Shown: piece after piece, positions 16,291 through 64,000 of the stretch
Numbering within the stretch: position 1 is the stretch's first letter
Layout: each line of letters opens with the position of its first letter
From: a virus
Reading direction: 5' to 3' (one strand)
Length of the DNA: 64,000 bases
Virus record (IMG/VR): IMGVR_UViG_3300046492_000237
Span: 28,690 to 92,689 of that record
Made by a program: the position numbers and the translations under genes
Notes under the pieces: model-generated
What the model was told of the DNA's origin: nothing
What the model saw: only the letters and a program-made list of their open reading frames with translations
Databases searched by the model: none

Positions 16291-17589
16291 TCAGGCGACC
16301 AGCGCTGGCGACCATGGGGTATGGTTTCCGAAAAGTGCTGCATCCAGCCACGTCGACCACTTACCCATCGCCTCTTTCATCTGGGGCAGGTAGTCGGCCC
16401 GGTCGTAATTCTTCGAGCCGGTGTCACTCTTGGCGTGCTGCTGGATCAGATCGCGGGTGAAGCGCTCGACACCGGCATCATGCGTGCGAGACTTCCACGT
16501 CCGGCGAAGATCTCGCGTCTGGAAATGGGCGACCGTCACACCGTCGCTGTCCAGCCAGCGCGATATCGCCTGATTGACACTGCGATGGTCGATCAGAGCC
16601 GATTGGCTTCCGCCACGGGCTGGGAACAAAGGCCCGTCGCCATGGACCGCAATCAGGTCGCGCAGCACCTCAACGACCTGTGACGGCAGCGGGATGATGT
16701 GCTGGTGCTTGCGTCCTTTGGTCTTGTGCGCTGGCATTTTCCACAACCCGGCGTCGAGGTCGATATCGGCACCGTCAATGCGCAAGGTTTCCTGCACGCG
16801 CTGGCCACATCCGATCAGCACGCGGATGCATGCGGCGATCTCGGCGGCGAACCCGGCGGTGCCGGTGGCTTCCCACAACAGACGCAGCTCTGGCCCGGAC
16901 AGGTTGCGGTCGCGAGTGTTGATCGCCCCGGCATCCTTGGCCACGTCAGACGCAGGGTTGCGCTCAACGCCCCAGTCCTGCCGCTCTTTCGCGGTGTAGT
17001 CGTTCGCCGACTTCATCGCCCAGCTGTATGCGGAGGCGATATAGCTTCGCGCCTTGTCAGCGGCGCCGCGATGTCCAGCGCTGAAGAACGTCGACACGTA
17101 GTTGACCACGTCCATCGGCGTCGGCTCGGAGGCGGCTCGATCGCGGCCAAGGGCATCAGCAGCGTTGTTGGCTGCCAGTAGCAGCACACGCTCGACCTCA
17201 TCAGCGCTCACCTTACCCTTCGCACGCATGCTGGCGATGTAAGCCTCGAACATCAGGCCAACGGTCGCCCTGAGCTGCGCAGGCTCGCTCCTGACTGGCT
17301 TGCGGTCTGCTGTCGGGTCCTGACCTTCCGCAACCTTCGCAAACTCCTTGCGCGCCAGCTCGCGAGCCTTGTCCGGCGTCAGGTCGGTGCAGCGCGCCAA
17401 TGTCAGCTTGCGCTGGGTGCGGGCTGCATCCTTTGTGCGGTAGCGGATCACGTATGTTTTGCGGCCGCTGGCTTGAGTGCGAACGCCGAAGCCTTCCAGC
17501 TCGCTATCCCACAACCAGCTATCACCCTTTTCAGGGGTTGGCGCATTATCAACGATCGTCTTGGTCAGTTTAGGCATGATAAACCCCAC
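16291..17589 (-). CDS. int: Tyrosine integrase with Arm DNA-binding domain
   Basis: WDSELEGFGVR arm domain; catalytic GQR, K, RDLRR, QH and NYDR; start may be the ATG at 17577. Confidence 0.92.
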   Translation of the reverse strand: MGFIMPKLTKTIVDNAPTPEKGDSWLWDSELEGFGVRTQASGRKTYVIRYRTKDAARTQRKLTLARCTDLTPDKARELARKEFAKVAEGQDPTADRKPVRSEPAQLRATVGLMFEAYIASMRAKGKVSADEVERVLLLAANNAADALGRDRAASEPTPMDVVNYVSTFFSAGHRGAADKARSYIASAYSWAMKSANDYTAKERQDWGVERNPASDVAKDAGAINTRDRNLSGPELRLLWEATGTAGFAAEIAACIRVLIGCGQRVQETLRIDGADIDLDAGLWKMPAHKTKGRKHQHIIPLPSQVVEVLRDLIAVHGDGPLFPARGGSQSALIDHRSVNQAISRWLDSDGVTVAHFQTRDLRRTWKSRTHDAGVERFTRDLIQQHAKSDTGSKNYDRADYLPQMKEAMGKWSTWLDAALFGNHTPWSPALVA

Positions 17590-17604
17590 TCATTTGCTTG
17601 TGCG

Positions 17605-17622
17605 TTGATCATAAATGATTAA
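17605..17622. promoter_or_regulatory. Palindromic operator TTGATCA-TAAA-TGATTAA upstream of int
   Basis: Matches the repeated TTRMTCA-N4-TGAKYAA family. Confidence 0.7.
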
Positions 17623-17654
17623 CGTGGTTATTGCCAATATTTTTGCCATAGCGC

Positions 17655-17691
17655 AAAAAAGCCACTGAGCCAGATCCCGGCGCAGTGGCTT
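17655..17691 (-). terminator. Intrinsic terminator
   Basis: GCCACTG..CAGTGGC stem followed by a T-tract on the minus strand. Confidence 0.6.
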
Positions 17692-17706
17692 GAGTATTGA
17701 CCAAAT

Positions 17707-18579: not shown

Positions 18580-18580
18580 T

Positions 18581-18605
18581 AAAAAGCGGGGTACATGACC
18601 CCGCT
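18581..18605 (-). terminator. Intrinsic terminator after the HU gene
   Basis: AGCGGGGT-CATGT-ACCCCGCT-TTTT on the minus strand. Confidence 0.65.
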
Positions 18606-18629: not shown

Positions 18630-18902
18630 TCAATTCACCGCGTCTTTCAACGCCTTGGCCGGCACAAACTTCAGCGCGACCTTGGCATCGATCACGATCG
18701 CTTCGCCGGTGCGCGGGTTGCGACCGGGACGCTCAGGCTTGTTCGTGGCTTTCAACTTGCCAATCGATGGCAACAGGACTTCGCCATCGGCGCGGAGGCG
18801 CGCGACAGTGTCCGAAAACAACGCATCAAGCACTCGGCCAACAGTAGCCTGTGACTCATTGGTCTTCGTAGCGATGCTGGCGACAAGTGCGAGCTTGCTC
18901 AT
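18630..18902 (-). CDS. HU/IHF-family DNA-binding protein
   Basis: R.GRNPRTGEAI.I.AK...KF.P.KALKDAVN signature. Confidence 0.92.
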   Translation of the reverse strand: MSKLALVASIATKTNESQATVGRVLDALFSDTVARLRADGEVLLPSIGKLKATNKPERPGRNPRTGEAIVIDAKVALKFVPAKALKDAVN

Positions 18903-44889: not shown

Positions 44890-45552
44890 ATGGTTAATCA
44901 TTCTTGGGGTACACCACCCAACCCGACGAACGGTGATTGGATCCCGAAGCCAAACCGCATGGATAACCGTATGATCGCCGGAAATCCCATTGACCCACAG
45001 GTGGCAGTGATGCAATCGAAACCGATTGAATACTTCACGTATCCCGAGCTGCCTGATCGTCCGATGTTCGAGTGCGCAGCACTCAGGGCAACCCTGCAAG
45101 TCGAGCGCTGTGCAGGTATGTGGACCGAGGCCAATGGGAAGAACCCGCCGGAACGTCTGGCCAAGTGCCGCAACTGCCCGATCGGCGCGCTGCATGCCGG
45201 GGAAGTGGAGTTCGACGTGTCAGTGCTGCGGGGAACCGGGATCTGTTCACGGTGCCACCGGGGCGGGATGCGGTTGATCGGGGGTGATATCTGCGTCAGC
45301 TGCTGGAACAGGGCTCGCGAAGTCATCGTCGGACGCAATGCCAAGGGCAAACCGCCCAAGATTCACCCGCCGCTGGCACCACGGTCGATCACCGTCCGGT
45401 CAGGCGGCCAGAACATCACGATCAAACGTGAGCACTCGGTCAGCACCGATGAGCTGGTGGTGGCCGGTTTGAGAGATTGCACCCGGCAGGTTTTGTTCGG
45501 ATTCAGTGCAACGAGAAAGGTTCCTATTTGCGTCCAAGGGGAGTTATTTTGA
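44890..45552 (+). CDS. Multi-Cys zinc-finger protein
   Basis: CRNC, CSRC, CVSC motifs; start uncertain. Confidence 0.65.
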   Translation: MVNHSWGTPPNPTNGDWIPKPNRMDNRMIAGNPIDPQVAVMQSKPIEYFTYPELPDRPMFECAALRATLQVERCAGMWTEANGKNPPERLAKCRNCPIGALHAGEVEFDVSVLRGTGICSRCHRGGMRLIGGDICVSCWNRAREVIVGRNAKGKPPKIHPPLAPRSITVRSGGQNITIKREHSVSTDELVVAGLRDCTRQVLFGFSATRKVPICVQGELF

Positions 45553-45953
45553 TGGAAGAAATTAAAAATTGCGCGAATTCCCAGAATCCGGGCAGCGTTA
45601 TCGACTTCGATGCCGAAAAACGTGCGCGCGAGGCTAAGTCTGACCAATCTGCGCAAGAACCAGTCTTCACGCTCATGCCGCACATCTGCCGCCACTGCTT
45701 CGGTCGATTGGCGAGCCGTTTGAACGATGGGCTGCAGGAGTACCGCTGCACGAATTGCGAGACGGTGACCGTGGCCCTTTCGCATGAGGAGGCCTGCTGC
45801 TGCGGGATGAAGATCCGCAAGCGCAACGGCGCCGGGCGCAGTGGTGGCCCGATGGTCGATGCGGGGATCCGCTGCATCCCAAATCCAGAGAAAAGTCCAG
45901 CATTTCCAAGCGCTTACGTCGCTTGCGAGGTGGTCAAAATCAAGCGCCCCTGA
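45552..45953 (+). CDS. Cys-rich zinc-binding protein
   Basis: HICRHCFGR, CTNC, CCCG; GGGAG before the ATG at 45552. Confidence 0.65.
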   Translation: MEEIKNCANSQNPGSVIDFDAEKRAREAKSDQSAQEPVFTLMPHICRHCFGRLASRLNDGLQEYRCTNCETVTVALSHEEACCCGMKIRKRNGAGRSGGPMVDAGIRCIPNPEKSPAFPSAYVACEVVKIKRP

Positions 45954-46040
45954 TTCGCAATCAGGGCGTCTGCAACAAAAAACTCTTATAAATCAACGTC
46001 ATTGCGTGCGCCGCTGGATTCTAGGGCGCACATAGGGCGC
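45948..46040 (+). repeat. Bipartite element, copy A
   Basis: CCCTGA-TTCGCAA-TCAGGGCGTC...GGGCGC-ACATA-GGGCGC. Confidence 0.75.
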
Positions 46041-46139
46041 AGATCTTTTTCGCTTAATCCGGCGCATTTGCTAAGGCATTGATCATATTTGATTGATATA
46101 CTGGCGCCCTTCGCTGCACTCACGATTCGGGGGAACACC

Positions 46140-46568
46140 ATGGATTCATCACCGCAACCACGCCTGCCAGTTGTGTACATCGCCGGGCCTTACCGCGCCG
46201 CGACGCAAGCCGGCATCGAGCTGAACATCCAAGCCGCTCGGTCGATGGGTCTGCAAGCCATTCGCCGTGGCTGGTCGCCGATCATCCCGCACTGCAACTT
46301 CGCGCTGCTGGATCTGGTCGACCCTGCCATTGGCGACAGCTTCTGGCTGGCCGCGACCATGGAACACATGCGCCGGGCCGACGTGGTGCTGCTGGTGCCG
46401 GGCTGGGAGAATTCGACCGGCACTCAGGCCGAGGTGCGGGAAGCGCGCCGCCTGAACATCCCGGTTTTCTACGCGCTGGACAAACTCACGGACGGCGCCG
46501 AGTACATGGTCCAGTGCGCAAAGATTCGTGACTTGGTCTCCGTCGTGATGGCAGGTTCGCAGGCATGA
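46140..46568 (+). CDS. Nucleoside 2-deoxyribosyltransferase-like (DUF4406/DUF1937-type) protein
   Basis: VYIAGPY, PIIPH, PGWENS.G...E...A...IPVF. Confidence 0.8.
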   Translation: MDSSPQPRLPVVYIAGPYRAATQAGIELNIQAARSMGLQAIRRGWSPIIPHCNFALLDLVDPAIGDSFWLAATMEHMRRADVVLLVPGWENSTGTQAEVREARRLNIPVFYALDKLTDGAEYMVQCAKIRDLVSVVMAGSQA

Positions 46569-48232
46569 ACACGACCACCCAACCCTTCACACTGCATCTG
46601 GGCGACTGCCTCGATGTGCTGCGCACTCTGCCGGATAACTCGGTGGATAGCGTCGTGACCGATCCGCCGTATGCGTTGCCCGGCGGTTTCATGGGCAAAA
46701 CATGGGACAACTTCGACGGTCGCGAGGATGCTGGGTTTGGTTACTGGCTCGCCGGCTTCACCGATGGTGAGGGCCATTTCCGCGTCCAGAAGCACGAACG
46801 CGGTTCGCACACTTGCGTATTCCAGATCAAGACTCGCGACGATGATCGCGCCGTGCTTGAGCGCATCAAGCGCTTCCTCGGCGTCGGAGTGATTTACGAG
46901 GGCGAAGGCAGCGGCAATGCCAACCCGCAGTGCGCATACATCGTCCAAGACAAGGAGGGCTGCGCTCGCGTTGTCGCCTTGTTCCGCAAGTACCCGCTGA
47001 CCGCCAAGAAGGCGCTCGACTTCGAGATTTGGGCCGAGGCTGTCGAGGAGTGGCTTGAGCGACCGAGAGGCAATCGTTGGCAGGGTATGGCTGACCAAGC
47101 GCGCGCTGCATCGCTGAAAGCTCGACTCGAAGACGTTCGCCGATACACGGGAATCCCTTGGTCTGGGCATAACTTTCAAGATTGGGTGCGCCAATGGGCA
47201 ACCGAGTGCCTTCGAGTGCTGAAGCCCGGCGGCCACATGCTGGCTTTCGGCGCTCCGCGCCAGTATCACCGCCTTGCGGCTGGTATCGAGGACGCCGGCT
47301 TCGAGATCCGCGACCAGATCATGTGGGTGTTCGGCTCAGGCTTCCCGAAGTCGCACAACCTCAAGGGTGACCACGCTGGTTGGGGCACCGCGCTCAAGCC
47401 AGCACACGAACCGATTTGCATGGCGCGAAAGCCGCTGATCGGCACGGTGCTGGCAAACGTTACGGCGTTCGGGACTGGTGCGATGAACATCGACGCCTGT
47501 CGGATCCAGACTGGCGACAACCTGAACGGTGGCGCTTACGTCGACGGCGGTCGTAAGTCGGTCTCGGATTCGATGCGTCAGGGCAGCGGCATGAACGCCG
47601 TTGGCTCATCGGCGGGCGAATACGTCCAGCCCTCCGGTCGATGGCCAGCCAACCTGATCCACGATGGCAGCCCGGAGGTGGTGGCGATGTTCCCCGCCGA
47701 GGCCGGCGCATCTGCTCCGGTCAAGGGCTCCGAGCCAACCGCCAATGGATTCAGCGGGTCTGTGAAGTTCAGCGGGTTGATTGGGCGCGTCGAGGGCGCA
47801 TTTCACGGTGACAGCGGCAGTGCCGCACGGTTTTTCTACTGTGCCAAGACCAGCCGACGCGACCGCAACGAGGGGCTGGTCGATCCCGGGCCGCAGTTCA
47901 AGCGCGGCACCACGCTACGCAAGGTCGAGAACACCGACACCAAGGGCAACAACCATCCGACCGTCAAGCCGACTGAGCTGATGGCGTACCTGCTGCGACT
48001 GGTCACGCCGGTTGGCGGCACAACGCTCGATCCGTTCCTCGGCAGTGGTAGCACCGGCAAGGCCGCGATGCTCGAAGGCTTCGAGTTCATTGGGATCGAG
48101 AAGGAAGCGCCGTACATGGCCATCGCCAGCGCGCGGATCTGTCACGCTCACGCCGCTGCCGTCGCCGCCGCTGATCTGGCGGACGCTGTCGCCAACCCAG
48201 TGCAGGCCGACCTGTTTGGGCTGCTGGCATGA
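46565..48232 (+). CDS. N4/N6 DNA methyltransferase with an in-frame LAGLIDADG insertion
   Basis: GDCL, TDPPY, RVLKPGG, HPTVKP, LDPFLGSGSTG; insert YWLAGFTDGEGHF. Confidence 0.9.
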   Translation: MNTTTQPFTLHLGDCLDVLRTLPDNSVDSVVTDPPYALPGGFMGKTWDNFDGREDAGFGYWLAGFTDGEGHFRVQKHERGSHTCVFQIKTRDDDRAVLERIKRFLGVGVIYEGEGSGNANPQCAYIVQDKEGCARVVALFRKYPLTAKKALDFEIWAEAVEEWLERPRGNRWQGMADQARAASLKARLEDVRRYTGIPWSGHNFQDWVRQWATECLRVLKPGGHMLAFGAPRQYHRLAAGIEDAGFEIRDQIMWVFGSGFPKSHNLKGDHAGWGTALKPAHEPICMARKPLIGTVLANVTAFGTGAMNIDACRIQTGDNLNGGAYVDGGRKSVSDSMRQGSGMNAVGSSAGEYVQPSGRWPANLIHDGSPEVVAMFPAEAGASAPVKGSEPTANGFSGSVKFSGLIGRVEGAFHGDSGSAARFFYCAKTSRRDRNEGLVDPGPQFKRGTTLRKVENTDTKGNNHPTVKPTELMAYLLRLVTPVGGTTLDPFLGSGSTGKAAMLEGFEFIGIEKEAPYMAIASARICHAHAAAVAAADLADAVANPVQADLFGLLA

Positions 48233-50697
48233 ACGCCTGCAGCTGGATTCACGATGTGGTCACGCTGGCCGATGGCCGCAAGATCGCCAGCAACAGCGAG
48301 GAGTGGCGCGCCGAGTGTGAGGCGCGCCACGTCCTGCGCATGAACCACACGGCGCGCACTGAATTCATGGCGTTCATCGAGCAGCGACGCGGCGCTTCTG
48401 CTGCCGAAAGCCTGCGCGCCTGCATCGAGGCGACCGAACCTGCCTACGTGCTGGAGCTGCCGAACAAGGCCCAGCGCAACGCCTATCTGCGCACGGTCGA
48501 GCTGAATCAGGGCGAGAACGCATCCGAGCACCTGCGCAACCGCTGCATGGACTTGCATGGCCAGCGTGAAGCCGCTTGTGCAGCGTCTGCCGCGTAACGC
48601 ATAATTGAGCAATGACGCCGTTATCCCAACGGCTAACGGTGAATACATGAGTAATTTTGACTGCGCTGGCATCGACCCGATCATTGTCCTGCTGATGTTC
48701 TACATCGCTGCGCGCTATGGCTTCCGCTGCTGGAACCGGCTGATGCGCCACCTCAACGTTCGCAAGCACGGATGGCCGCCAGAACACCTCGCCGCTGATG
48801 GCGACTTCCGGAGGGGCGGCCAATGATCATCCCAGTGTTTGCCTTGATGTTCTTGGCCCAGCATATCCTGCGCGGGCCACGCCGATGAGACTGCAAGTGA
48901 TGGCCGTCACCGGCCGCTTCCAATACGCATGGACCAACGTGCGGAATGTCCGTTCTGGCTACCTGCGTGCCCAGCAGTGCGATGACCGTGGCAAGGATCG
49001 GCTCTACTGCCGCATTCGGTGGCTGAAATGAAAATCCTTGTCCTGCTGTACGCGCTGGATCTGCCGATCGAGTTCGAGATTCGCCGTCACCTGCTGTTGC
49101 GTATCCGGGGGCTTCGATGAGCCTGACCGGTCGCACCAAGTACCGCACCGGCTGGTTCGGCTGGCTGATCCTGCAGGTTGAGGTGATCGATCGCCGCTAC
49201 GACGACGAGGGTGAAGCCATCTGGCGAGACGCCAAGGCTGAAGACTTCGCCCCCAACCACGTCCGCCAGATCTTTCGTGATGCTCCAATGCCCTACCCGG
49301 GCCAGCGCCCACAAACCGAGCAATAGACCATGACCCAAACGACCACGATGAAACGCCTGTACGCCGACGATGGCAGCTACGCCGGTGTCGCCGAAGTAAC
49401 CACCGAAAACTGCATGGTCGCGCTGTACCGGCACCGCCCGGGCGCCCGTATGGAACTGACCCGTATGTCCATGGCCGTGCGCCTTGGGATCACCCGCATT
49501 CTTCTGGAGCGCCGCGCATGACCGTCATGAAAACCGAGATCTTCGAAACGCTCAATCAGCGGATCACCGTCGAAACGCCCGTGGTCACCCGCGAGCAGCT
49601 GCACGCCGCGCTGAGCTGCTTCGTGGGGCGACTGGTTACGCCAGAGCTTAAAAGGGATATGCAGGTGACGGTCGCTACGCTGCTCGCGCCGAAGATCACT
49701 ATCGAGGAATGCTCGCCGCCGAGCAGCCTGCTGATCCACCTGCCGCTCTACCAGCACATCTCGGTCGGGCATCGTCAAGTACGCGCGCTGAAGGTCGCCG
49801 CCGTCATCCCGAACCCGCGCGGCATCGAACTGCACTTCGAGAACACCCGCTACGCGCCTATTCAGGTATCCAACCGCTGGAACATCGACTGGGCGCCAGA
49901 GCCGGGCGGCTACTACGGCCATGCCCAGAATGGCGAGCCGTTCTACATGAGCGCCGATGGCTTCAACGAGAACTACACCATGATCGAGGTCGGCGCATGA
50001 ACCTGCCCCGCGCGCTCGACATCCTGATTCCTCGCTTCATGACTGAGGACGCAGCAGTTGATCTCCACTTCTGCGGTCAATGCAATAAGCCGCACCCGCA
50101 ACCGGTCTGTTCGATGAAGGATATCGAACCCGGGGAAGTCTTCGCGGGCATCATGACCGTGCGGTTCTTCAACCTGTTCGGCCTGTCGCTGTTCCCGCAC
50201 TATGACGGCGTGATGCGACCATGGGTCAACCCACACGACAAGGCTGAGCCCTGATGGCGAAGGACATTGATGAAACTCGGCAGGACCGGTCGGCCGACCG
50301 CGACGCCATTCAAGCGCAGATGGATGAGTACCTGCGCCATGGGGGCCTGATCAGCAAGTTGGACTGGTCGGGCAAAGTGATCGGCCTTGAGACCGAAGCG
50401 CCGTCCGCGCCGCGCCAGATCCCAAAGGGCATGAACTTCAATCCACCGATCAATAGCGATCGAACGGCAAAGCTTGCTCCTACAGTGCCAGCCCCGGCCA
50501 GCAAGGCTTTGCCCGTCAAAAAGGTCGAGTTCGCTCCCATAGTGGAAATCGCACCGGCGGTGGTCACTCGCCGGGTTAAGCCTGCGCCGACCGCCACCAT
50601 CATCGACATCGTGCCTGAGCTGCGCCGCATCCGTGCAGAAGCCCAGCGCGCACTGGCCCGGCTGAATGCTGCTGCCGAAAGGCGAATCGCGTGACAA

Positions 50698-50789
50698 CCC
50701 TGACCAGTGATCAGGGCGTCAGCGGCGCAAACCACCGCAGACGCTGACCGCCTGCACAACCACCGACAGTTCGGGCGCCATAAGGGCGC
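50698..50789 (+). repeat. Bipartite element, copy B
   Basis: CCCTGA-CCAGTGA-TCAGGGCGTCA...TTCGGGCGC-CATAA-GGGCGC. Confidence 0.8.
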
Positions 50790-51842
50790 GAAGCCATGGA
50801 GAACCGTATGATCGAGACACCTGAAAACTGGGAGGTGCTGGCCAAGTCGCTGAACGATCCGTGCGCCAGCCACCAGTGCAAGACCTGCAGCGGCAAGGGC
50901 ATTCACAACTGCCCCGGCTCGAAACCGGCGCCAGTTCGCTCGATTGCCGAGGATGAGGAACTGCTGGCCAAGGCCGATCGATGAGCAGCGTATTCCACGG
51001 CGAGCCGGGCGGTCATGCACGGTCTGTGCGCGACGTGACCTTCGGCACACCGAAGCGGCCATCGACCGGAACTGTCAAAGGCCATAAGCCGCTGCTGACC
51101 GACGCCGAGATCCTTGAAATGCGTGCGCTCAGTGAGTTCTCCGGATGGACTCGCGAGCAGCTTATGGCGCGTTTCGTCGTCGATTACGACATGGTTTACC
51201 GCGTGCTGTCGGGCGTGACCCGATCGCGCTTGGTCGCCACCCGCAAACACCTACCGAAGAATCTGGAGCCCGCATGATCGACAAAGAGCTTTCGCTGATC
51301 GTCTACCCGGTTGAGGTTGGGGATGAACCCCAGTTCTGGGTTGCCGAGTCCCAGCACTTCAAGTACCTGCATCCGCTCGACGGCAAGGAGGAGACTTTCC
51401 GCTTTCAGCAGAAGGGCGACACCGCCGATGAGGCGCGGCAGAACGCGCAGAAGCAACTGGACTGGTTCAATGGCGATCGAGGCAACTGCATCACCGAGAT
51501 CCAAGACTTCACCGCCGAGCAGCTGGCCAAGGTGACGCCGGTATGAGCCAAAGAGCGGAGTACCTCGACTACGCGACTCTTGACAGCGGAATGATGCATC
51601 GCGTGCGGGTGCGCGCCGAGACCGTCGATATCGGCCCGGCGAAGGACGTTCCTTGCGGCCCGGTAGCTGTCGCCCTGAGCCACTTGAACTACGGCTGGTA
51701 TTCGTGGCGCCAGAAAGCCGAGTTCGGATTCATGCGGCTGGTTCGTCGCAAGCCAGTCGCGGCACAAGCGGCCGCACTCATCTCGCACGACCGGATCCTC
51801 AACGGGCAGATTGCGTCGCGCGGGTTGGTTTCTTTTTACATC

Positions 51843-51935
51843 ACCTGATACGGAATCAGGGCGTCACGCAGTAGATAAACCAATAAACACTGATGATTTC
51901 AACGCAACACTTCACTTCGGGCGCCGAGAGGGCGC
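51843..51935 (+). repeat. Bipartite element, copy C
   Basis: ACCTGA-TACGGAA-TCAGGGCGTCA...TTCGGGCGC-CGAGA-GGGCGC. Confidence 0.8.
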
Positions 51936-52749
51936 AAAAACCAAGGGGTATGCATGAACACTCAAGACAAGTTGAATATGGCTTCAGCACTCGGCAACAC
52001 CATCGCCGGGCTTCTGTCGGTTTCCCAAAACAATAGCTCTGCCGTGCAGGCATCTGTTTGCAGCCTGATTACCGCAATGGCAGCCAAGGCTCAGGGGCTC
52101 TTGACTGCTGATGAGCTGAAGATCACCGCAAAAAGTCCGGAGGATGTCGCCGAGATTGTTGACGCCTATCGAGGATTCGGTGCTGGCATCGCTCGCGAAC
52201 TCCTGTCCGCTGAGGGCGCATTCCACTCCTCCGACTGCTCGACCAACAATCGCGGCGTACCGGAACTGCTCGGCAAGTGCGACTGCTCGATCGCGCCGTG
52301 TGAGCACAACGCCCCAGCCGCCGACTGCCCGTGCATGAGCGAGGGGACGAGAAATCAGGGGTTGGGTCACAACATGAACTGCAACTTCGAGCACTTCCTC
52401 GCCTACACTGGTCTGCACAGTGAGTCGCCTGAGACCATCGCCAAGATCAAGATCGGCTTCGCTGATCAGTGGCGACCGTGCGATCTGGTGGCAGAAGTTG
52501 AGTTCGTTCCGGACGATATCGGCAAGGCCGCCCCGATAATTTCCAGCGCCGATCTGGTCGAGTACCTGAGTGGGCGATATCAAGCCGGCCAGATTGATCA
52601 TGTGGTGCGCGTCGTCAGCAGCGGCATGGGGCAGGCCTCGTTCTACATTCGCCCGCACAGCGCCAATGGCGTTACCTCGCAATTCTTCGCCGTCAAGGCC
52701 TGATACGCTCTCCCCGCCGGCCCATCCGTGGCCGGCCTTCCCCTGCGTC

Positions 52750-52765
52750 GTCGTGACAATACCCT
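52750..52765 (+). promoter_or_regulatory. Putative late promoter GTCGTGAC-AA-TACCCT
   Basis: Intergenic motif copy upstream of the TerS-like gene. Confidence 0.55.
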
Positions 52766-52799
52766 CGCTCAATACCCTACCCAACCCACGGACTGAATA

Positions 52800-53318
52800 G
52801 TGTCAAACGACGATCTCGAAACCACGATTGCGTATGCCCGCGCGCTGTACGAGGGCACGCACGGCATGACCATCTCAGAGCTGTCTGAGATCACCCAGAT
52901 CGCCCCGCGCACGCTGAAGATTTACAGCAGCGACCAGAAGTGGAAAAAGGAACTCGAAACCAAGACCGGCGCGACCACGCAGAAGGCTGTCGAGGCCGCC
53001 GCGCATTTCTCCGGTCAGCAGCTGATGCGCGAGAAGGAAGGCGAGGACACGCCGGCCGAAGACAATGCGCTGGTCGAGCCTTTGCCATCTGAGCGCGACG
53101 AGCTGCTGAAGCGGCACAAGGCCGAATGGAAAGTGCCGCGCACCATGGCGAACGAGTCGGTGAACCTGCGCACCACGAATCCGATGGCCGCATTCGAGCG
53201 CGCCAAGATGGCCAAGATCACCGCCGAGAGCCTGAAAATCATTCAGGACGGTGAGCGCCGAGCCTACGGCATCGATAAGCCGGACGGCGACCATACCCTG
53301 CTTCTGCAAAGGACCTGA
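52800..53318 (+). CDS. Terminase small subunit-like protein
   Basis: N-terminal HTH ending in W.K; KIIQDGERRAYGID C-terminal motif; next to the ParB-methylase. Confidence 0.55.
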   Translation: MSNDDLETTIAYARALYEGTHGMTISELSEITQIAPRTLKIYSSDQKWKKELETKTGATTQKAVEAAAHFSGQQLMREKEGEDTPAEDNALVEPLPSERDELLKRHKAEWKVPRTMANESVNLRTTNPMAAFERAKMAKITAESLKIIQDGERRAYGIDKPDGDHTLLLQRT

Positions 53319-53321
53319 TCG

Positions 53322-54827
53322 ATGGACATGAAACAGATGATGGGGCTCGACGTCGAGATCCCGCAAATCACCCTGCGTCCAATCGACAGCATGGTCGCCT
53401 ACCACAACAACTCGCGCACGCACTCGATCGGTCAGCTGGCCGAGATTGGCGCAAGCCTGCTGGAATTCGGCTGGACCAATCCGATTCTGGCCGATGCGCT
53501 GGGCACCGTCGCCGGCCACGGACGCACCATGGCCGCCGCCGAGCTGTATCGCCAAGGCAAGCAGATCCTGTTCCCTAACGGTTCGCCTATTCCGATCGGC
53601 ATGGTGCCGGTGGTCGACTGCACCGGTTGGAGCGATGCGCAGCGCCGCGCCTACATCATCGCCGACAACAAGCTGGCCCTGAACGCGGGGTGGAATATGG
53701 AGCTGCTTAGCATTGAGCTGACCGAACTGGGCGAGATCGGTTTCGACCTGTCGCTTACCGGCTTCAACGAGGATGAACTCGCCGACATCCTCACGATCGA
53801 GGAGCAGGAATTGCCGGACGCTGATCCTGATGCGGCGCCCGCGCTTGAGGACAACGCCGTTTCCGTGCTCGGCGACGTCTGGGTACTCGGGCCGCACCGG
53901 GTCTGCTGCGGCGACAGCACCAGCCTTGATGACTGGGATCGCCTGATGCAGGGTGAGCGCGCCGACATCTGCTGGACTGACCCGCCGTACAACGTGGATG
54001 TAGGCCGGAAAAACCGCCTGATGGATACCGTCGATGGCCAGTCGCGCGCGGCAACCGGCTCGCTGAAGAACGACAAGATGAGCGACGCCGACTTCGGCGA
54101 GTTCATGCTCGACTTCTACAAGGCCACGATCGAGCAGCTGAAGGCCGGCGCGCCGATCTACGTGGCGCACGCCGATCGCACCGGGGACATTTTTCGCAAT
54201 GCCTTCATCGCCGCCGGCTTCCACTTCAGCCAGACGATCATCTGGCGCAAGAACAACCATGTGCTCGGCGTGGCCGATTACCAGTCGATCCACGAACCAA
54301 TCCTGTACGGCTGGCGCCCGGGCTCGAAGCACAAGTGGCACGGCGGCCGCAAGAACAAGACCGTCATCGAGATTGGTGAGGGTGGCCCGATCAGCCAGAC
54401 CGAGGATGGCCGCTGGGTGATCAAGGTCGGTGATCAGGTGCTGATCGTCGATGGTCAGGCCACCCTGCAGGAAAGTCAGTCGTCGATGATCTACGAGCCG
54501 AAGCCGGCCAAGTCAGGCCTGCACCCAACCCAGAAGCCCGTTGCACTGGTCGAGCGGATGCTGAAGAACAGCGCTCGCGGCGGAGATCTGGTGGTCGACG
54601 CGTTCGGCGGTTCCGGTACCACGCTGCTGGCAGCCGACCGCATGGGTATGTCTGCCCGACTGATGGAACTCGACCCGCGCTTTGCCGACGTCATCGTGCG
54701 GCGCTGGCAGGATTACACCGGGCGCCGTGCGTGCCATGCCGTGACTGGCGAGCTGTTCCCGGGCGAAGGCGAAGTGCGTCCGGATCCTCTACCAGACGCA
54801 GAGATGGGCGATGAGGATATTTTCTGA
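53322..54827 (+). CDS. ParB-domain N4/N6 DNA methyltransferase
   Basis: EFGWTNPIL, AGHGR, AYIIADNKL; TDPPYN, HPTQKP, DAFGGSGTT. Confidence 0.92.
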   Translation: MDMKQMMGLDVEIPQITLRPIDSMVAYHNNSRTHSIGQLAEIGASLLEFGWTNPILADALGTVAGHGRTMAAAELYRQGKQILFPNGSPIPIGMVPVVDCTGWSDAQRRAYIIADNKLALNAGWNMELLSIELTELGEIGFDLSLTGFNEDELADILTIEEQELPDADPDAAPALEDNAVSVLGDVWVLGPHRVCCGDSTSLDDWDRLMQGERADICWTDPPYNVDVGRKNRLMDTVDGQSRAATGSLKNDKMSDADFGEFMLDFYKATIEQLKAGAPIYVAHADRTGDIFRNAFIAAGFHFSQTIIWRKNNHVLGVADYQSIHEPILYGWRPGSKHKWHGGRKNKTVIEIGEGGPISQTEDGRWVIKVGDQVLIVDGQATLQESQSSMIYEPKPAKSGLHPTQKPVALVERMLKNSARGGDLVVDAFGGSGTTLLAADRMGMSARLMELDPRFADVIVRRWQDYTGRRACHAVTGELFPGEGEVRPDPLPDAEMGDEDIF

Positions 54828-55027
54828 TGAGCGACATTCAGCTGGTGGAGCTGGGCACGCTATCACCCGGCGACTGGGTTCGCTTCATCGGCGGCGATAT
54901 CGGCATCATCCGCGACAAAGTCACGGTGCCCGGGTACCGGCAATCCTACGTCGAGGTACCCGGCGATCGTTACCCGGTGCGAATCACGCCGCTCGACGCC
55001 AAGGTCGAACACCTGCCCGACCATCAT

Positions 55028-55108
55028 CCCTGACTACCAATCAGGGAATCAGCCAGATGACGCGCCGCTTTGAGCGCGTTTTCTGTTTTTCGGGCGCCAA
55101 TAGTCCGC
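55028..55108 (+). repeat. Bipartite element, copy D (short spacer, degenerate)
   Basis: CCCTGA-CTACCAA-TCAGGG...TTCGGGCGC-CAATA-GTCCGC. Confidence 0.65.
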
Positions 55109-55124
55109 AACGTCAATTAGCCTA

Positions 55125-55154
55125 TTGCTCAAATCCGGTTAATGCGCGCATAAT
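55125..55154 (+). promoter_or_regulatory. Operator-like site with sigma70 promoter (TTGCTC-18-CATAAT)
   Basis: TTGCTCAAATCCGGTTAA variant palindrome. Confidence 0.6.
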
Positions 55155-58100
55155 CCTTCCATCAACAACGCAACGGGGCAGGAACATGAACCAGCGCATC
55201 ATCAACTTCATCGTCACTCCCGATGAGAACGGTCACGCGGTACTGATCGCCGGGGCCGACAACAAACCGGTGGCCAGCACCGACATCCCGCGCATCGGGC
55301 ACATCAACGAAGTTATCGGCGTGAACCAGCGCAACGCCCGCCGTGTCGCCGCCTGCCTGAACGCGTGCGATGGCATCGACAGCGAGGCGTTGGAAGCGAT
55401 GCCGGCCAGCTTCAACACACTCCTTTCCGATGCATTCATGAGCGTGCTCAAGTTGCCGGAAGTAGCGACAACCATTCATGATGAGCAGGCCCGCGACTTT
55501 ATCGCCGCGTGGAACGCCATGCCGCTCACTGGCCCGACCATCGTCGCAATGCAAGCGTCCGGCGACCTGCTGCCGCCAGTTGAGATCGAGCAGATCGCGT
55601 GGCTGCAAAAGGCGCACACCCTGCACCGTCAGGTTTCGATGCTGTACGTGGTCGATGGCTACGAGGTGACGGTTACGTTGGATGAAAATCCAATCTCCGA
55701 AGCCTTTCATGGCGAAACCCTGCGCGAGGCGATCAGCAACGCCATGGCCGGGCACGACCTTGATGCGCGACCGCATCCGTACACCGACAATCAGCTGCGT
55801 TACCCGGAAGATGCGCAGCGCACCAAGATGCTCAACACCCTGAAAGGTATCCGCGCGCACATTGAAAAAATCAGCCCAGACCACTGGTGGATCGATACGC
55901 CGGACCGTGGCGGTTTCGACACTGATGAGCTGGATGCCATTATCTCTGAATTTGAAGGCGGTGACGTATGAAAGACCGATCGAAAGACATGCTGGAAGTG
56001 TCCAGCTCCGGGCACGGCGATGCTCGCGGCAGTTTTGTGCGTGACGAATATTTTGTTCGCTTCGCCGGTGATGACATTGCCCTCGCCTCAGACATTGCCG
56101 ACACCGAGACAGGTCAGGCATCCGAGGCCAACGCACGTCGCATTGCGGCCTGCTGGAACGCCTGCGCCGGGATCAGCACCGAGGTGCTGGAACTGAACGC
56201 AACCGCCGGCGGCGTGGCCACGCTGGAACGTCAGCGCAATGTGGCTCTGGACGCACTCAATACGCTGATCCTTTTCACCAAGCCGACCAAAACCAATGCC
56301 GTGGCACTGCACCGCGCTATTTCAGTCGCTGGGCAATACTCGCTTTCTGGGCAGAAAACCGAGCGGGACACCGTCAGATATGTTGAGGCCTGCAAGATAG
56401 CGATCATCGACGTCGCCATGTCGAAAAGGCCGGTCGATGAGATCCGCAGCGCGATCGGCTTCGAGCTGGGTCTGATGCACGCTGAAATCGTGAGCGACAA
56501 CAGCGATTTCATCGACAAGCACTGGCGCCCTGTAGCCGCCCGGCGAGACGCATTGCTGGAGGCGCTGCAAAAACTGAACAGTCAGTTCTGCGCCAAGTTC
56601 GATGAAGGTCTAGAACTCACAGATGCCGACGCCGATCTGGTCGCCGAGATTGGCATCGTTCTGGCCGGCGCCAATAACCAGAAGCCTGCAGCCGGTGGCG
56701 CCTCATGAAACCAATCCCGATATCGGCAGCCGAGCGCATCGCCAAGGATTACGGTTACGACCAAGTGATCATCATCGCGCGCAAGGTCGGTAACCCCCCG
56801 GATCCACATGGCGAGCACTGCACGACCTACGGCGTCACCAAGGCCCACTGCGAGGTTGCTGCCCGTGCAGGCGACTTCCTGAAATACAAGGTGATGGGCT
56901 GGGTGAAGGACGAGGACACTGGGAAATGAGCCTGCCAGTCCACTACTTCACCAACAATAAAACCCGCATGTGTCGCGTTATCAGCGGGCGCGGCCCTGAC
57001 CACACGGCCAACCTGCTCGAAGCCGAAAAGGATGGGTTTAAGGAGGTCACTCCATTTGAATTCGACGACTTCCGCGCTGAAACCCAGAAGGCCAAAGACG
57101 CTGGCTGGAACCCGAACCGCATGCGCTACGCCACGTTCATGGCCAAGCAGGCTGCCAAATGATCCGCTGCTGCCGCGACCGCTGCGAGCCCGGCACCGAA
57201 TGCGGCTGCCCTGCCTGCGCCGCGAAGAAATACCCGCAGTACACCACCAAACCAGACAGCGAACAGATGGTCGGCATCTGCCCTGCGTGCCACGGCGCGC
57301 TGGTCATCCGTAACGGCGCCACCGTCCATGCCAGCAGACAAACCACTTGCCCGGGAGTTATCAGGCGATGAGCGAGAACAAAGAACCGAATGCGATTTAC
57401 TGGCCTGCCGGCGGAAAGCTGCTCGCCCGCATTACCAAAAACGGGAAAATGGTTGCAATCTTCAAGGTCGCACCAACCGATGAAATTGGTCACGCCATGG
57501 CCGCAGCCATTGATGAAGCCAAAGACGTCACCCAGATCCTGCTCAGCGTAACCCCGGGTCCCGATGGTGAAGGCCAAGAGAACTACGCCAAATCGGTTGA
57601 CGATGTCGTGGCATTGCTCGGCGAGCAGAGCGACCAGATCGAAGCGCTAGAAACCCAACGCCTGCGCGCCGATACGGCTGAGGCTGAGGTGGCGAAGTTG
57701 ATCGATAAATTGTCATACGAAGAACGCGATCACCATACTACCAACCTTAGTCGGGACGCTTGGCGCAATAAATACGAAGAGTTGTTGAATCTCATCAAAC
57801 GAGCACAAAGTTTCGTGGCTTTCGTACACAAGTGCTGCCGTAAAAACAAAGAATATGCGCCGTTACACTGGCAGGAAATGGTAGAGCTTGATCGTGATCT
57901 GTCGGGCACCACCGCCCTCAACCCCAACCCCGAGGCAGAAAGTCATGAGTGATAAATGGGCAGATCACAAAGAAAAGTTCTGCGGCTGCAAAGACGCTAG
58001 CCGCTTGAATTCTTGCAAAGGTCTGGCGAATTGTGCGCTTCCTGCAAATCATCCTGAGCGAAATACGCTGGCTACTATCGAGCTGACCATGACCAATAAC

Positions 58101-59675
58101 CCAACGATTGACGGCCTGCTTCTGGAAACGCTGAAGAAATGGCGCCGCGACTTCGATGCATGCCAGCGCGTGATCTGGCTGGCCGGCGGCTTTGACCCGG
58201 CCTATTGCAAAGATGCTCAGGCCTGCATTGCCGAGATGGACGCTTTCCTCGATGAGCGTGCGGTCCACCCATCCAGCGGCCCCGCCGGCCCGCGCGAGCG
58301 CTTCGAGAAGTGGGTCATGGCCAAGAAGCATCCGGTGCTGGGCTTCCTCGACGGTCACTGGCTCAAGCGTGGAGATGACCGCGAAGGCTACGCCAACGAG
58401 TACGTGCAGGGCCTGTGGGTTGCGTTCAAGGAGTTTGACTTGCCACCGCTGATCAAGACCCTGCGCGAAAATGGCGACCTGATCGCAGCTGAGGCGACCA
58501 TCGCTCAGTTGCAGCAGCGTATTGCGCAGCTGGAGAGCGGGCAGTCTGAGAAAATCCATCCAGAGCTTGGTTCAGCACCGTCAGCTCACATGACTTGGCT
58601 TTTGGAGAAGGTCGTAAATCCCGGCGACTACCCTGAAAAAGTTCTGCACGAACAAATCCGATCGACGCTTGAGGTGTTAAACAAAAATCCTTCTGCGACG
58701 CCGGAACCACTCGGCTGGGTTTCCCAGTATGAACTGAACAGGATCCGCAACAAGCAGGCGCACTGGGCAACACTATGGGCAACAGATGGCAGTGAGAATC
58801 CATCGCGCATGGACCCGACGTTTGCGCTGTACGCCTACCCTCAAGAGCCTGCGGCAGTTGCATGGCGAGACATGGCAACCGCGCCAAAAGATGGAACGCT
58901 GCTGATCCTGCTGGTCGAGTTCGAGGAGCATTCCACCGAGGACGAAAAGCAGGCGCCGACCATCGGGGCGAACAACTTCACCAATGACGGGCAGGACGAG
59001 TGGGTATTTGCCGGCTGGTGCTGGAGTCATGACCACTGGACGCAGGGCGTCGGTAAGCCGATCGGGTGGCGCCCATTGATCGCTTCGGTACCGGAACCAA
59101 CCCAGCTCTTGTCGCGAGCCTTCACCACGCTGGAATCTGGTGATGGCACGTACAAGATCGTCGCTCAGTTCCAGAACCGCGATGATGCGTGGGAAGCCTA
59201 CGGGCTGATCTGCGGCTTCAAAAAACCTATCCCGCCAATCAGTGCAGGGCATTGCCGTAATGGCGACGCCTGCTTGTGCGGCGGGGATACCGCTGGTGTG
59301 CGCGCCACCTGTGGCAACTGGGTGAAGCCGTGAGCATCAACGACTACGACATCGAGCTGCTGCAGCTCGCCGCGCAGGCCGCTGGTTACGAACTGATCCC
59401 GTGGGATAACGCGATCGGGTTCGTGATCCGTGACAGCGCCGGCCACCCGCAACGGTGGAACGCTCTGATCAACGATGGCGACTGCTTTCGCATGGTGCTC
59501 GAGTGCGATATCAGCATCGAGATTGATGCTGATGAGCGTCGCACCATTGCCACATACGGTGACGGCGAGCGCTGCCAGCAATACTGGGACGGTCTTGTTA
59601 CCGGAAAAGCCACGGCGACCCGCCGCGCAGCTGTGCGTGCGGCCGCCGAAATTCAGAAGGCAAAGCGATGAAAGA

Positions 59676-59768
59676 CCCTGATAGTTAATCAGGGCGTCAG
59701 CTGCTCGCAGTCCGCGCCATCCGGCAACTGTCAATGATTGTTCAATAGTTCGGGCGCCAGCCGGGCGC
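59676..59768 (+). repeat. Bipartite element, copy E
   Basis: CCCTGA-TAGTTAA-TCAGGGCGTCA...TTCGGGCGC-CAGCC-GGGCGC. Confidence 0.8.
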
Positions 59769-63600: not shown

Positions 63601-63999
63601 GCGTCAGTGGCGAAAGTCCTGAAGGTCAGCGACTCGCAGATCTACTCGATGGTCAACGCTTATGGCCCGGGTACTCCCGAGGACAAGAAAAAGCTCGCGG
63701 AAACCCTGATCGCGCGCAAGGCCGATCTGTTGGCGAAGTACCCGAAAGCCAAAAAGACGAAGGTCATCACGTTCAAGCCCGAGAAGATCAGTGAGCCGCC
63801 GAGCTTCATGAGCTGGGGTAGCAGCGGCGCGCCCGGCCCGTCGAGCAAGCTGTTCCTCAACGAAGCCAACGAAGCGGCCGTGCAAGCGATCTACGCGGCA
63901 GCCAAGACCGGCAGCGCGGAAGCGGTCAAGGCCCTGAGCGCCGACACGTTCAACAAAAACACCGGCGAGGTCATTGGCAGCGCGCCGGTGCTCGATCAC
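60652..63999 (+). CDS. Giant multidomain protein (partial, >=1116 aa) with a HipA/PI3-PI4K-like kinase domain
   Basis: Frame +1 read by hand: MTELIAAP..LLIKA..; kinase motifs QGGSNPGG, WYCKF, SEVLASKLY, DAWLGNWD, DNL, RVDAGG at about 63085-63490; runs off the window. Confidence 0.8.
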   Translation, partial: MTELIAAPAGQRRVALLIKAKIAHQAGYYLLNGRWHSIHQHKPAPKGVPVAAHPKAAHAEHVKPFPLPDEQIEALKLPPENVNSGTYNKQLDSLLGYAANGDATAILGMNLGTNTYGKKLAKVANYLLQGMGVTEEYQVAPGQKAGEHHAVKQTPAPVETPAPAANEPVIAAAAVIEAAKADDPVVEAVVETPAAPFMAYPSSGPLAMPEFVEGKTTTGVVDYYQTQAMKVIDMAESGDLDGLVQMKQSGMVPNSKGKISNTWAGKTENSKKLIALHDNAVELTVENALDALPPAAAVAEPEPVVVEAQVVAAPVVSTDLTSQIPWEKLSSPETKGDGSPNKEGINANKKLAAIKAAAEAGDIATLEGMKFGINTYGKKLNQAKAIALASLEEIPAAPEPVSVVTEPVTPPPNTLAMQLADAKGPLGKMAVAEQHVVKNGKSPETYKQIAEAHEDLGNADSAEHWNAKAADLATMNVLSGAMAADGTVNGSTKIAVAHILNSADSLKAQAQAIDALNELGHTGASKAIQMAMDATLLDTFKTNVSASDEEHEAMAVAKDYLATGGPSAAKVDHIISTLEENGFTTGAQEYKEAYGLDEGPNDGDTKQGADGQLVFQNGRWHKVKTDEAEAAPVPLSAIEHQAVMGYLNSAEADELEHAAGKAIFQTLSEEEKQALNVEALNSKPKAELHPLDAIPLPDLSQQLTQAGVDKVMAGLEKLKENAKTEGASAFKGTLKKMSASGKLITKLPGKYGKLSLKVVGLANSPEHYGSLVHQYVEDLKTVAGGKNVKPKPAPAPAPTPQPYGQPPIESMDNWKQVGPQGGSNPGGKFVDEAGVEWYCKFPKSEDIAKSEVLASKLYGAAGIEGQDAKLITKDGKIGIASKWADVTKAPAATLAKADGAAAGFAVDAWLGNWDVVGLEYDNLQLDPSGKAVRVDAGGSLEYRAQGGKKTFGDTVLEIDSLRDSKINPQAAKVFGKLSQADITASVAKVLKVSDSQIYSMVNAYGPGTPEDKKKLAETLIARKADLLAKYPKAKKTKVITFKPEKISEPPSFMSWGSSGAPGPSSKLFLNEANEAAVQAIYAAAKTGSAEAVKALSADTFNKNTGEVIGSAPVLDH

Positions 64000-64000
64000 C

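Follow-up and report, generated by a model that had tools for sequence, protein, structure and literature searches.

What is a bipartite DNA element doing, repeated at gene junctions, in a phage that has kept its integrase and lost its true integration site? The phage is a 92-kb Pseudomonas-type myovirus (G000 below), from which a window of 64,000 nucleotides was analysed. The first-pass annotation of this window had described five copies of an inverted repeat (IR, CCCTGA-N7-TCAGGG) followed by two direct repeats (DR, GGGCGC-N5-GGGCGC), and had proposed either a middle-gene activator or antitermination site or a recombination site resembling lambda att. All five copies lie where it had placed them, on the + strand: copy A at 45948..46040 (IR 45948-45966, DR 46024-46040), copy B at 50698..50789 (IR 50698-50716, DR 50773-50789), copy C at 51843..51935 (IR 51843-51861, DR 51919-51935), copy D at 55028..55108 (IR 55028-55046, DR 55092-55108) and copy E at 59676..59768 (IR 59676-59694, DR 59752-59768). 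Their spacings, measured from the start of the right IR arm to the start of the first direct repeat, are 63, 62, 63, 51 and 63 bp, as it had reported. A sixth copy, F, with a spacing of 51 bp, occupies genome positions 5387-5467 and is missing from the window because the contig is circularly permuted.

Both motifs are concentrated in the elements. The IR at ≤1 mismatch gave 12 strand-matches, compared with 1.0 expected, at six places, five of which are elements and the sixth (53231) a chance match in coding sequence. The exact DR occurs five times (0.10 expected), four times in elements and once, at 47783, inside a methyltransferase gene; copy D, as described earlier, has a degenerate second repeat. 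In three copies the TGA of the left arm indeed ends the upstream open reading frame (ORF), at 45953, 51848 and 55033. Copy A follows the stop codon of ORF 45477-45953, with an operator/promoter-like stretch downstream of it, and its orthologues lie 3′ of the same conserved gene in the relatives G003, Dolphis, Touem01 and G004. Directly 3′ of copy B come the next gene's ribosome-binding site and start. Copy C has a broken outermost IR pair, and its spacer is the same in G000, G001, G002 and G003. Copy D carries an intrinsic-terminator-like hairpin in its linker (55059-55090) and a sigma-70-like promoter downstream. The genes neighbouring the elements are accessory ones, for example methyltransferases, toxin-like genes and other modification genes. 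Two details of the earlier description needed correction. The 7-bp spacer is variable except for its last two bases, which are conserved as R-A, and five further conserved bases follow the right arm; the linker keeps its length but is not wholly free in sequence, several linkers containing an IHF-type motif or terminator hairpins. A match to a described Rfam family, which had been named as an outcome that would remove the novelty, was looked for across the whole window, with 0 matches at the gathering threshold, and neither tRNA nor tmRNA was found in the window. Our literature search found no description of such an element.

Related phages carry the same element. The clade consists of ~90-kb Pseudomonas-type myoviruses, among them Dolphis and Touem01, which are in culture, and an integrated prophage. 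We found 42 copies in eight related genomes, those of both cultured phages among them, and seven in one prophage; genomes of the clade have four to seven each, and all 42 copies are oriented along the rightward operon. Spacing is conserved in three classes, 61-64 bp (35 copies), 51 bp (6 copies) and 73 bp (1 copy), which are steps of about one helical turn, and between Touem01 and G004 the spacing of orthologous copies changes from 62 to 73, exactly 11 bp. Of 26 non-redundant copies, 6 have a mismatch at the middle IR pair, and stems in Touem01, G004 and G005 pair poorly. These spacing classes, together with a hairpin pairing that is not strictly kept, uphold the earlier suggestion of a helically phased nucleoprotein site that would act at the DNA level. 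Between G000 and its closest relative, G001, core and spacer are 100% identical in five of six copies and the repeats 88-100% identical, as against 67-98% for the linkers. Copies have been gained and lost between relatives, yet orthologous ones are retained between genomes whose proteins are just 55-75% identical, and in genomes diverged far beyond the G000/G001 pair 4-7 of the 7 spacer positions agree between orthologues. The constancy of core, repeats and spacing against diverging linkers and flanks points to selection acting on the element.

We propose that both halves of the element are bound by a tyrosine integrase (Int; gene at 16291..17589, − strand), which matches Pfam Arm-DNA-bind_3 (2.9e-14) and Phage_integrase (4.3e-13) and has an N-terminal arm-type DNA-binding domain and, by alignment, a conserved catalytic Tyr region. 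About 1 kb from int lies a gene for an HU/IHF-family DNA-bending protein (18630..18902, − strand; Pfam Bac_DNA_binding, 7.4e-24), a candidate bender of the linker. An IHF-type motif at a fixed 23-25 bp before the DR is present in 11 of 30 non-redundant copies (0.013 expected), though weak in five of the six G000 copies; the full IHF consensus occurs in 6 of 30 (0.026 expected), within G000 in copy F alone, with copy A near it. In another relative, G005, Int is 75% identical to that of G000 in the arm domain and 26% identical elsewhere, and the G005 elements have the same repeats as those of G000 and a different core motif. Judged from sequence, this natural domain swap ties the repeats to the arm domain of Int and the core to the rest of the protein.

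The elements can also be compared with the genuine attachment sites of the clade. In four relatives (Touem01, G003, G004 and Dolphis) an attP is present next to int and consists of the 3′ part of tRNA-Arg(ACG), from the anticodon loop on. It is flanked on both sides by repeat clusters in both orientations, and the repeats are those of the dispersed elements of the same genome: GGGCGC in G003 and Dolphis, GGGCCCC in Touem01 and G004, a co-variation that follows phylogeny and so amounts to one event. In the prophage G006 the arm-type repeats are likewise those that flank genuine attP. A Dolphis-like prophage occupies a complete tRNA-Arg(ACG) gene, with the integrated junctions visible. The anticodon arm of that tRNA gene, which is the natural attB core, forms an inverted repeat around a 7-nt spacer and matches the element variant CCAGA-N7-TCTGG exactly, and element arms either repeat the attB/attP core sequence or depart from it at the middle pair. 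Starting at the spacer end, G000 elements agree with the attP core of the relatives at 12 of 14 bases, and the element core plus the five bases beyond it match the tRNA-Arg anticodon arm plus variable loop. The likeness has its exceptions. The right arm of the Touem01 and G004 elements (TCTTGT) is unlike their own attP core, and in real attL ~100 bp separate the core from the first P′ repeats, a distance outside the 51/62/73 series, so that the element geometry is not a simple copy. Furthermore, attP is absent in G000 and G001, and neither a tRNA piece nor a DR cluster adjoins int of G000, so the link of its repeats to arm-type sites rests on the relatives. Nevertheless, int is under strong purifying selection although both phages lack attP (G000 versus G001, dS 0.17 and dN/dS 0.065).

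On balance, each element is probably an orphan attL-like Int/IHF site at a module boundary, at which binding, bending and strand exchange may take place. The core would comprise two integrase core-type half-sites, inverted about a 7-bp overlap and modelled on the tRNA-Arg(ACG) anticodon arm; the linker would hold an IHF/HU bending site in many copies; and the direct repeats would be two tandem arm-type sites 11 bp apart. A heterobivalent integrase could then use its N-terminal arm domain to grip the tandem repeats and its C-terminal domains to grip the core, holding both simultaneously while IHF or the phage HU-like protein folded the ~60-bp linker, and we propose that the core-repeat distance comes in whole helical turns because the folded linker lets integrase do so. 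Such folded complexes would mark the boundaries of accessory-gene modules. Of the two original hypotheses, the lambda-att-like site is thus strongly supported in its architecture, by the attP-flanking repeats, the attB core design and the arm-binding integrase, and its recombination role is putative. The activator or antiterminator found no positive support, as the repeats do not look like promoters, having both orientations at attP and lying 3 to ~100 nt ahead of ribosome-binding sites.

In our view, site-specific recombination is the most likely role of the elements. No common 7-bp overlap is shared by all copies, and we therefore propose that a copy would pair mainly with its counterpart in a sister or co-infecting genome; rare pairing with a neighbouring copy could excise or insert a module. 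One junction is consistent with this. In G001, two neighbouring copies, E1 and E2, flank an extra 1-kb cassette that is absent from G000, and copy E of G000 is a hybrid: its left arm and spacer are those of E1, its linker and repeats those of E2, and the join falls in the right core arm that both have in common. The expectation that gene gain and loss would coincide with the element is therefore borne out at copy E and not at large, as most mosaic breakpoints of the region between G000 and G001 lie elsewhere. Neighbouring copies with different overlaps argue against frequent recombination between copies, and conserved intergenic repeats attract homologous exchange anyway, which counts against exchange by Int.

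The same proteins might instead bind without strand exchange, so that the folded complexes of Int (with IHF/HU) act on the rightward accessory operon as insulators, as regulators or as oriented roadblocks, in the manner of Cluster A mycobacteriophage stoperators or of integrase genes that repress themselves via arm-type sites. We regard this as unlikely, though a serious competitor. Every copy points with transcription and sits exactly at a gene end, the repeats either precede the next ribosome-binding site by 3-10 nt or lie just 5′ of sigma-70-like promoters, and element positions are stable between diverged genomes; purifying selection on int in genomes without attP suits a physiological role better than one in evolvability, and the separate overlaps disfavour inter-copy exchange. 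There is precedent in IntS, which represses its own promoter via att-region sites (PMC2951348), and in repressor-bound stoperators, which halt elongation (PMC9283540). A roadblock, however, needs neither a core with a 7-bp spacer, nor a bending site, nor strict helical phasing; intrinsic terminators already present in some linkers and not in others leave no uniform transcriptional logic; and both the retained catalytic motif of Int and the E1/E2 hybrid junction inside the core count against binding alone.

A regulatory role of the bound protein is possible, and the protein could also be another one altogether: an excisionase, a Cox/Apl-like or some other phage regulator on the repeats and attP, with a second factor on the IR, switching middle genes on or off as in the activator hypothesis of the first-pass annotation. 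P2 Cox and 186 Apl bind direct repeats one helical turn apart at attP and promoter regions, and that such repeats are typical of excisionase/Cox/Apl-type proteins too counts against assigning them to the integrase; several copies, moreover, have promoter-like sequences and a separate palindromic operator downstream. We nonetheless think a protein other than Int improbable here. Repeats on both attP arms in both orientations are the pattern of integrase arm sites rather than of directionality factors, the element core copies the attB core, the G005 swap links both parts to Int, and a candidate regulator was not identified. Still less credible is an element read as RNA or as a promoter, with the IR forming a hairpin for processing, stability or antitermination and the repeats a phage-specific or sigma-54-like promoter. 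The G000 IR does form a clean stem of 5-6 bp with a 7-nt loop directly past stop codons, G003 has both the T/A and the A/T version of the middle pair, and the repeats stand shortly before genes and formally fit GG-N10-GC. Against this stand the mismatched middle pairs and poor stems described above, 11-bp spacing steps that are a property of duplex DNA, the lack of an Rfam match, and the absence of an RNA polymerase among the large proteins scanned. A sigma-54 promoter was rejected: GG-N10-GC stands bare of TGGCAC/TTGC context, the repeats have both orientations at attP, and in copy E the start would come 3′ of the ribosome-binding site. It is equally hard to credit that the elements are inert scars, relics of past integration or excision or tRNA-gene fragments without present function. 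Such scars would fit the tRNA-like core with its five extra bases and the gain and loss of copies, but not the constancy of core, repeats and spacing amid diverging linkers and flanks, nor orthologous copies that survive at 55-75% protein identity.

An orphan attL-like site has several known counterparts in part. With lambda attL (B-O-C′, H′ IHF site, tandem P′1-P′3) and the tRNA-targeting Arm-DNA-bind_3 integrases of the P4 family, it shares core half-sites inverted about a 7-bp overlap, tandem arm-type repeats one helical turn apart and, in many copies, a candidate bending site that separates them from the core, a core equal to the tRNA anticodon arm that is the family's attB, and a phage-encoded heterobivalent tyrosine integrase with an IHF/HU-type protein. 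It differs in having six to seven copies per genome, remote from int and set between the genes of an accessory operon, each with its own overlap and no known attR/attB partner, in its shorter core-to-arm distance, and in being retained in a lineage without attP. Integron attC sites are likewise recombination-type sites in the same orientation at gene 3′ ends, with embedded stop codons, bounding variable accessory genes. IntI, however, is not known to have an arm-binding domain. The phage integrase has one, and this, a 19-bp core with tandem repeats phased as a duplex in place of long imperfect single-strand hairpins, and the lack of any attI/Pc platform that we could see argue against an attC cassette array; the phage modules are also multigenic, some with their own promoters and terminators. 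Cluster A stoperators are single short asymmetric repressor sites of 13-14 bp. They and the Cluster K start-associated sequences (SAS) and ESAS, the latter a 17-bp inverted repeat beside the SAS in mycobacteriophages (PMC9283540, PMC3203893), are, like the element, protein-site-like motifs spread mostly in one orientation over the short intergenic gaps of temperate phages and conserved at orthologous genes, but they neither copy att-site parts nor have helical-turn spacing classes. The promoter-early stem-loops (PeSLs) of T4-type phages are repeated composite intergenic motifs in plastic regions, made of a sigma-70 promoter and a terminator, that shuffle by homologous exchange, with circles possible (PMC2839356, PMC4122927). 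PeSLs coincide with insertion, deletion and replacement junctions, as the element does at copy E, yet the conserved parts of our element contain no promoter or U-tract terminator and copy integrase binding sites instead. A PeSL was ruled out, as no element has a promoter-like match inside it, the IR lacks a U-tract and the only terminator is found in copy D, within its non-conserved linker.

Integrase attachment sites belong to textbook knowledge, which allots a single site to each element. In the present case an entire clade has four to seven extra half-sites made of the same parts, in helical register, exactly between accessory genes, and two of its members lack attP while int is strongly selected, implying a second job for a lambda-type integrase. 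Tentatively, that job could be an integron-like phage module system, in which an arm-binding lambda/P4-type integrase with IHF/HU would serve an attL-like site per accessory module, excise modules as circles and insert them, and exchange them precisely between co-infecting relatives at sites whose overlaps match, and would be useful enough to outlast the loss of attP. Culturable phage-host pairs exist, so that either role can be tested directly. If the elements recombine, they would offer a concrete enzymatic mechanism for modular exchange among phage genomes; if they only bind, they would be a new kind of genome-wide boundary or silencing device.

The five copies (A–E, window 45948–59768) of a bipartite element reported in the first-pass annotation were all found where it had placed them on the plus strand, and the distances it gave between the right arm of the inverted repeat and the first direct repeat (63, 62, 63, 51 and 63 bp) were borne out, as was the use of the left-arm TGA as the stop codon of the upstream open reading frame (ORF) in three copies. 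The inverted repeat gave 12 strand-matches against 1.0 expected, and the exact direct repeat gave five against 0.10. A sixth copy, F (genome 5387–5467, spacing 51 bp), was placed after wrap-around, approximately 1.8 kb before the terminase gene. The element had not been recognized as a described one, and Rfam at gathering thresholds returned no match; ARAGORN found no tRNA.

The phage contig, from a rhizosphere metagenome, is 92,689 bp long, and the window covers bases 28690–92689. Its 127-bp terminal repeat is an assembly overlap, and assembly of the source run yielded the phage as a single 92.6-kb contig joining both ends of the stretch compared. The contig ends are spanned by a 1,389-aa ORF (window 60652–64000 and on to genome 948), the first 1,116 aa of which matched no Pfam or PHROG family and the counterpart of which in the cultured relative Dolphis is annotated as an ADP-ribosyltransferase. 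The phage is a myovirus and carries genes for the sheath, the portal and the large terminase. By primase, the named phages nearest to it are Touem01, Dolphis and Jeremy of Pseudomonas, ST4 of Aeromonas and PHB04 of Bordetella; in a megablast search of GenBank phages the region matched methyltransferase pieces only, with no close DNA relative. Mecenats66 has been shown to package by the headful mechanism from a preferred site; its terminase groups in a single clade with the Dolphis and PHB04 terminases, and the authors suggest the same mode of packaging for the three phages (PMC9503643). The six copies of the element all fall within a 23.5-kb rightward stretch of accessory genes that includes three DNA methyltransferases (one with a LAGLIDADG insert) and a nucleoside-deoxyribosyltransferase-like gene. 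According to Pfam, the LAGLIDADG endonuclease domain sits in frame within an N6/N4 DNA methyltransferase (window 46707–47193); it is missing from the otherwise 92–94% identical gene of the related viral contig G001. The 146-aa protein directly before copy B (window 50254–50694) matches the SutA RNA-polymerase-binding domain only weakly, below threshold (E 5e-5; 22.9 bits versus a cut-off of 29.3).

Two scans of viral contigs, one for the exact pattern and one anchored on proteins, identified the relatives G001–G005, and the genomes of Touem01 and Dolphis were examined in full. The exact-pattern scan gave 43 matches, two of which were true relatives; the other 41, chance hits or tRNA genes, provided the lead to the tRNA anticodon arm. 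The eight genomes together hold 42 copies, every one at a gene junction and oriented with the rightward operon (the G005 record carries both of its copies on the minus strand). Conservation of spacing, on which the looping architecture had been premised, extended to the relatives, with 61–64 bp in 35 copies, 51 bp in six and 73 bp in one; orthologous copies of Touem01 and G004 have spacings of 62 and 73 bp, exactly 11 bp apart. The geometry is constant, whereas the half-site sequence varies by lineage: the right arm reads TCAGGG or TCTGGG in our phage (G000) and G001–G003, and less strictly so in Dolphis, Touem01 and G004 have TCTTGT and G005 has TCTGAC, and the repeats are of GGGCCCC type in Touem01 and G004 and otherwise GGGCGC. 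Five of the six copies show 100% identity between G000 and G001 over the 19-bp core, spacer included, compared with 88–100% for the repeats and 67–98% for the linkers; the identity profile over the elements shifts at copies C and D under no clear rule. More distant pairs agree at 4–7 of the 7 spacer positions. The copy A spacer in G002 (1253–1271) is the reverse complement of that in G000 (window 45948–45966), with central CGC changed to GCG, as might result from the spacer inverting inside a perfect palindrome or from three base substitutions.

Genuine attachment sites in the relatives revealed what these half-sites resemble. A typical attP adjoins the integrase gene (int) in Touem01, G003, G004 and Dolphis; it consists of the 3′ part of a tRNA-Arg(ACG) gene, from the anticodon loop on, flanked on both sides and in both orientations by clusters of repeats that match the dispersed copies of the same genome. 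An integrase search of bacterial genomes gave no match, and a DNA pattern for the junction of tRNA end and P′ arm located a Dolphis-like prophage of approximately 94 kb on a contig labelled Microvirga lupini (G006 contig C1, about 680,900–775,020), an odd label for a phage group otherwise tied to Pseudomonas. This prophage is complete and integrated in tRNA-Arg(ACG) with attL and attR: at one end the complete tRNA gene abuts the P′ arm, at the other lie int, the P arm and the duplicated tRNA 3′ piece, and the interior holds seven dispersed elements. The junctions place the natural attB core at the anticodon arm, ACCAGA, CTACGAA, TCTGGG, itself an inverted repeat with a 7-nt spacer. This core is identical to one element-core variant, and the other variant differs only at the middle pair. 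Because the left arm of the element matches the tRNA (B-type) side and not the attP (C-type) side, the elements look like attL, with B-O-C′, a bend and then P′ sites. In the P arm of Touem01, one right-arm motif copy, real or perhaps a chance occurrence, stands 61 bp before a repeat pair beside the int start; no comparable motif was seen in the P arms of G003, Dolphis or the prophage.

A candidate site for the bend lies in the linker. The linker had been described as free in sequence, and between distant relatives it is near random, but of 30 non-redundant copies 11 have an IHF-type motif at a fixed distance of 23–25 bp ahead of the repeats (0.013 expected). The complete WATCARNNNNTTR sequence, which is the IHF consensus with its sixth base given as R, is present in 6 of the 30 (0.026 expected). 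Since the motif-to-repeat distance is fixed, the 11-bp steps fall between core and bending site. The tyrosine integrase (Int) of the phage has an Arm-DNA-bind_3 domain and a catalytic domain, and an HU/IHF-family gene lies 1 kb from int. It is established that the N-terminal domains of integrases recognize arm-type sites and that the two co-vary (PMC3203893). The Int of G005 is 75% identical to that of G000 over the first 88 residues and 26% in the rest, and the G005 elements retain GGGCGC repeats and 62–63-bp spacing with a different core motif; by sequence, G005 appears to be a natural swap of Int parts. The best-supported reading is that the element is an orphan attL-like Int/IHF site.

Comparison of window 17589–18600 with Dolphis 40047–40582 and G003 65950–66450 indicated complete loss of attP from G000 and G001: the tRNA-Arg piece is gone, as are the two arm clusters, and the operator and int are kept. 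The rearranged region beside int that they share contains no tRNA piece and no repeat cluster, and a 290-aa minus-strand ORF of no known family occupies the former attP place (window 17589–18600). The dispersed elements are the only integrase-type sites found in these two genomes. The catalytic tyrosine region of Int is kept in all orthologues, and int shows a dS of 0.17 and a dN/dS of 0.065 between G000 and G001.

One junction looks recombinant. G001 has seven copies, and in place of copy E it carries E1 (spacer TAGTTAA), a promoter-like stretch with three small genes, and E2 (spacer TGCTGAA). Copy E of G000 consists of the E1 left arm and spacer joined, within the shared right arm, to the E2 linker and repeats, the arrangement that a single crossover at or next to the border of the overlap would produce between two directly repeated sites. 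The proposal that gene gain and loss break at the elements held in part: a second difference, a gene lost from G000 with its first eight bases left behind, ends exactly at the left edge of the copy E core, and G000/G001 homology restarts exactly at the left edge of copy F, but most of the roughly ten insertions, deletions or replacements between these genomes lie elsewhere. In G002 a further copy lies between C and D, and one methyltransferase gene occupies a different inter-element interval in Dolphis from that in G000 and G003; the pairs Dolphis/G003, Touem01/G004 and Dolphis/prophage are too diverged for breakpoint mapping to decide. When contigs of two DNA runs were compared with the region, the matches came from the source contig and from a G001-like strain alone, and none of them showed an excision or a new joint at an element.

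Readings of the element as RNA or promoter fared poorly. As an RNA hairpin, its stem is mismatched at the middle pair in 6 of 26 non-redundant copies of GGGCGC-type genomes and poor in Touem01, G004 and G005; a compensatory change apparent in G003 was lost once more genomes were included, and spacing steps of 11 bp are a property of duplex DNA. Terminators occur in some linkers (copy D and several relatives); other linkers have none. A promoter role for the repeats is at odds with their presence in both orientations at attP and with a distance to the next ribosome-binding site that varies from 3 to about 100 nt; sigma-54 and pho-box-like readings were dropped on geometry and orientation, and no polymerase turned up among the large proteins scanned. 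Separate motifs are present. A palindromic operator with sigma-70-like hexamers, distinct from the element, follows copies A and D; this TGATCA-N5-TGATCA-type motif, probably the site of a Cro/CI-type regulator, recurs at the int/attP region and after some elements (window 17600–17640, beside int, and 46079–46098, after copy A; G001 65170–65200; Touem01 63585–63605). A distinct GTCGTGAC motif directly follows some copies in relatives and occurs within the accessory region (window 52740–52760; G002 8680–8700; Dolphis 72830, 83660 and 84110). The promoters of the region are therefore sequences other than the element. Touem01 also has a dense GGTAAC/GTTACC array (89,900–90,640) in a large intergenic region heading the rightward operon, which may be an origin or iteron-type region.

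From the identity of the element we favour a function as a recombination site, because Int keeps its catalytic motif, the 7-bp spacer of the core is retained and its ends are conserved, one hybrid junction exists and the region is highly mosaic. The main rival is that the elements are only bound, acting as boundaries or roadblocks, a role with which the strength of selection on int agrees, as does the single orientation of the copies. Full-text literature searches found no description of dispersed integrase half-sites; related concepts are PeSLs, stoperators, SAS/ESAS and integrase self-repression at att regions.

If the elements recombine, a copy would be expected to exchange chiefly with its counterpart in a sister or co-infecting genome, because every copy has its own overlap, and only rarely with a neighbouring copy. 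Cre-lox circularizes or resolves the genomes of phage P1. By analogy, and as speculation, same-copy exchange could help to circularize or resolve headful-packaged, terminally redundant genomes in this phage group.
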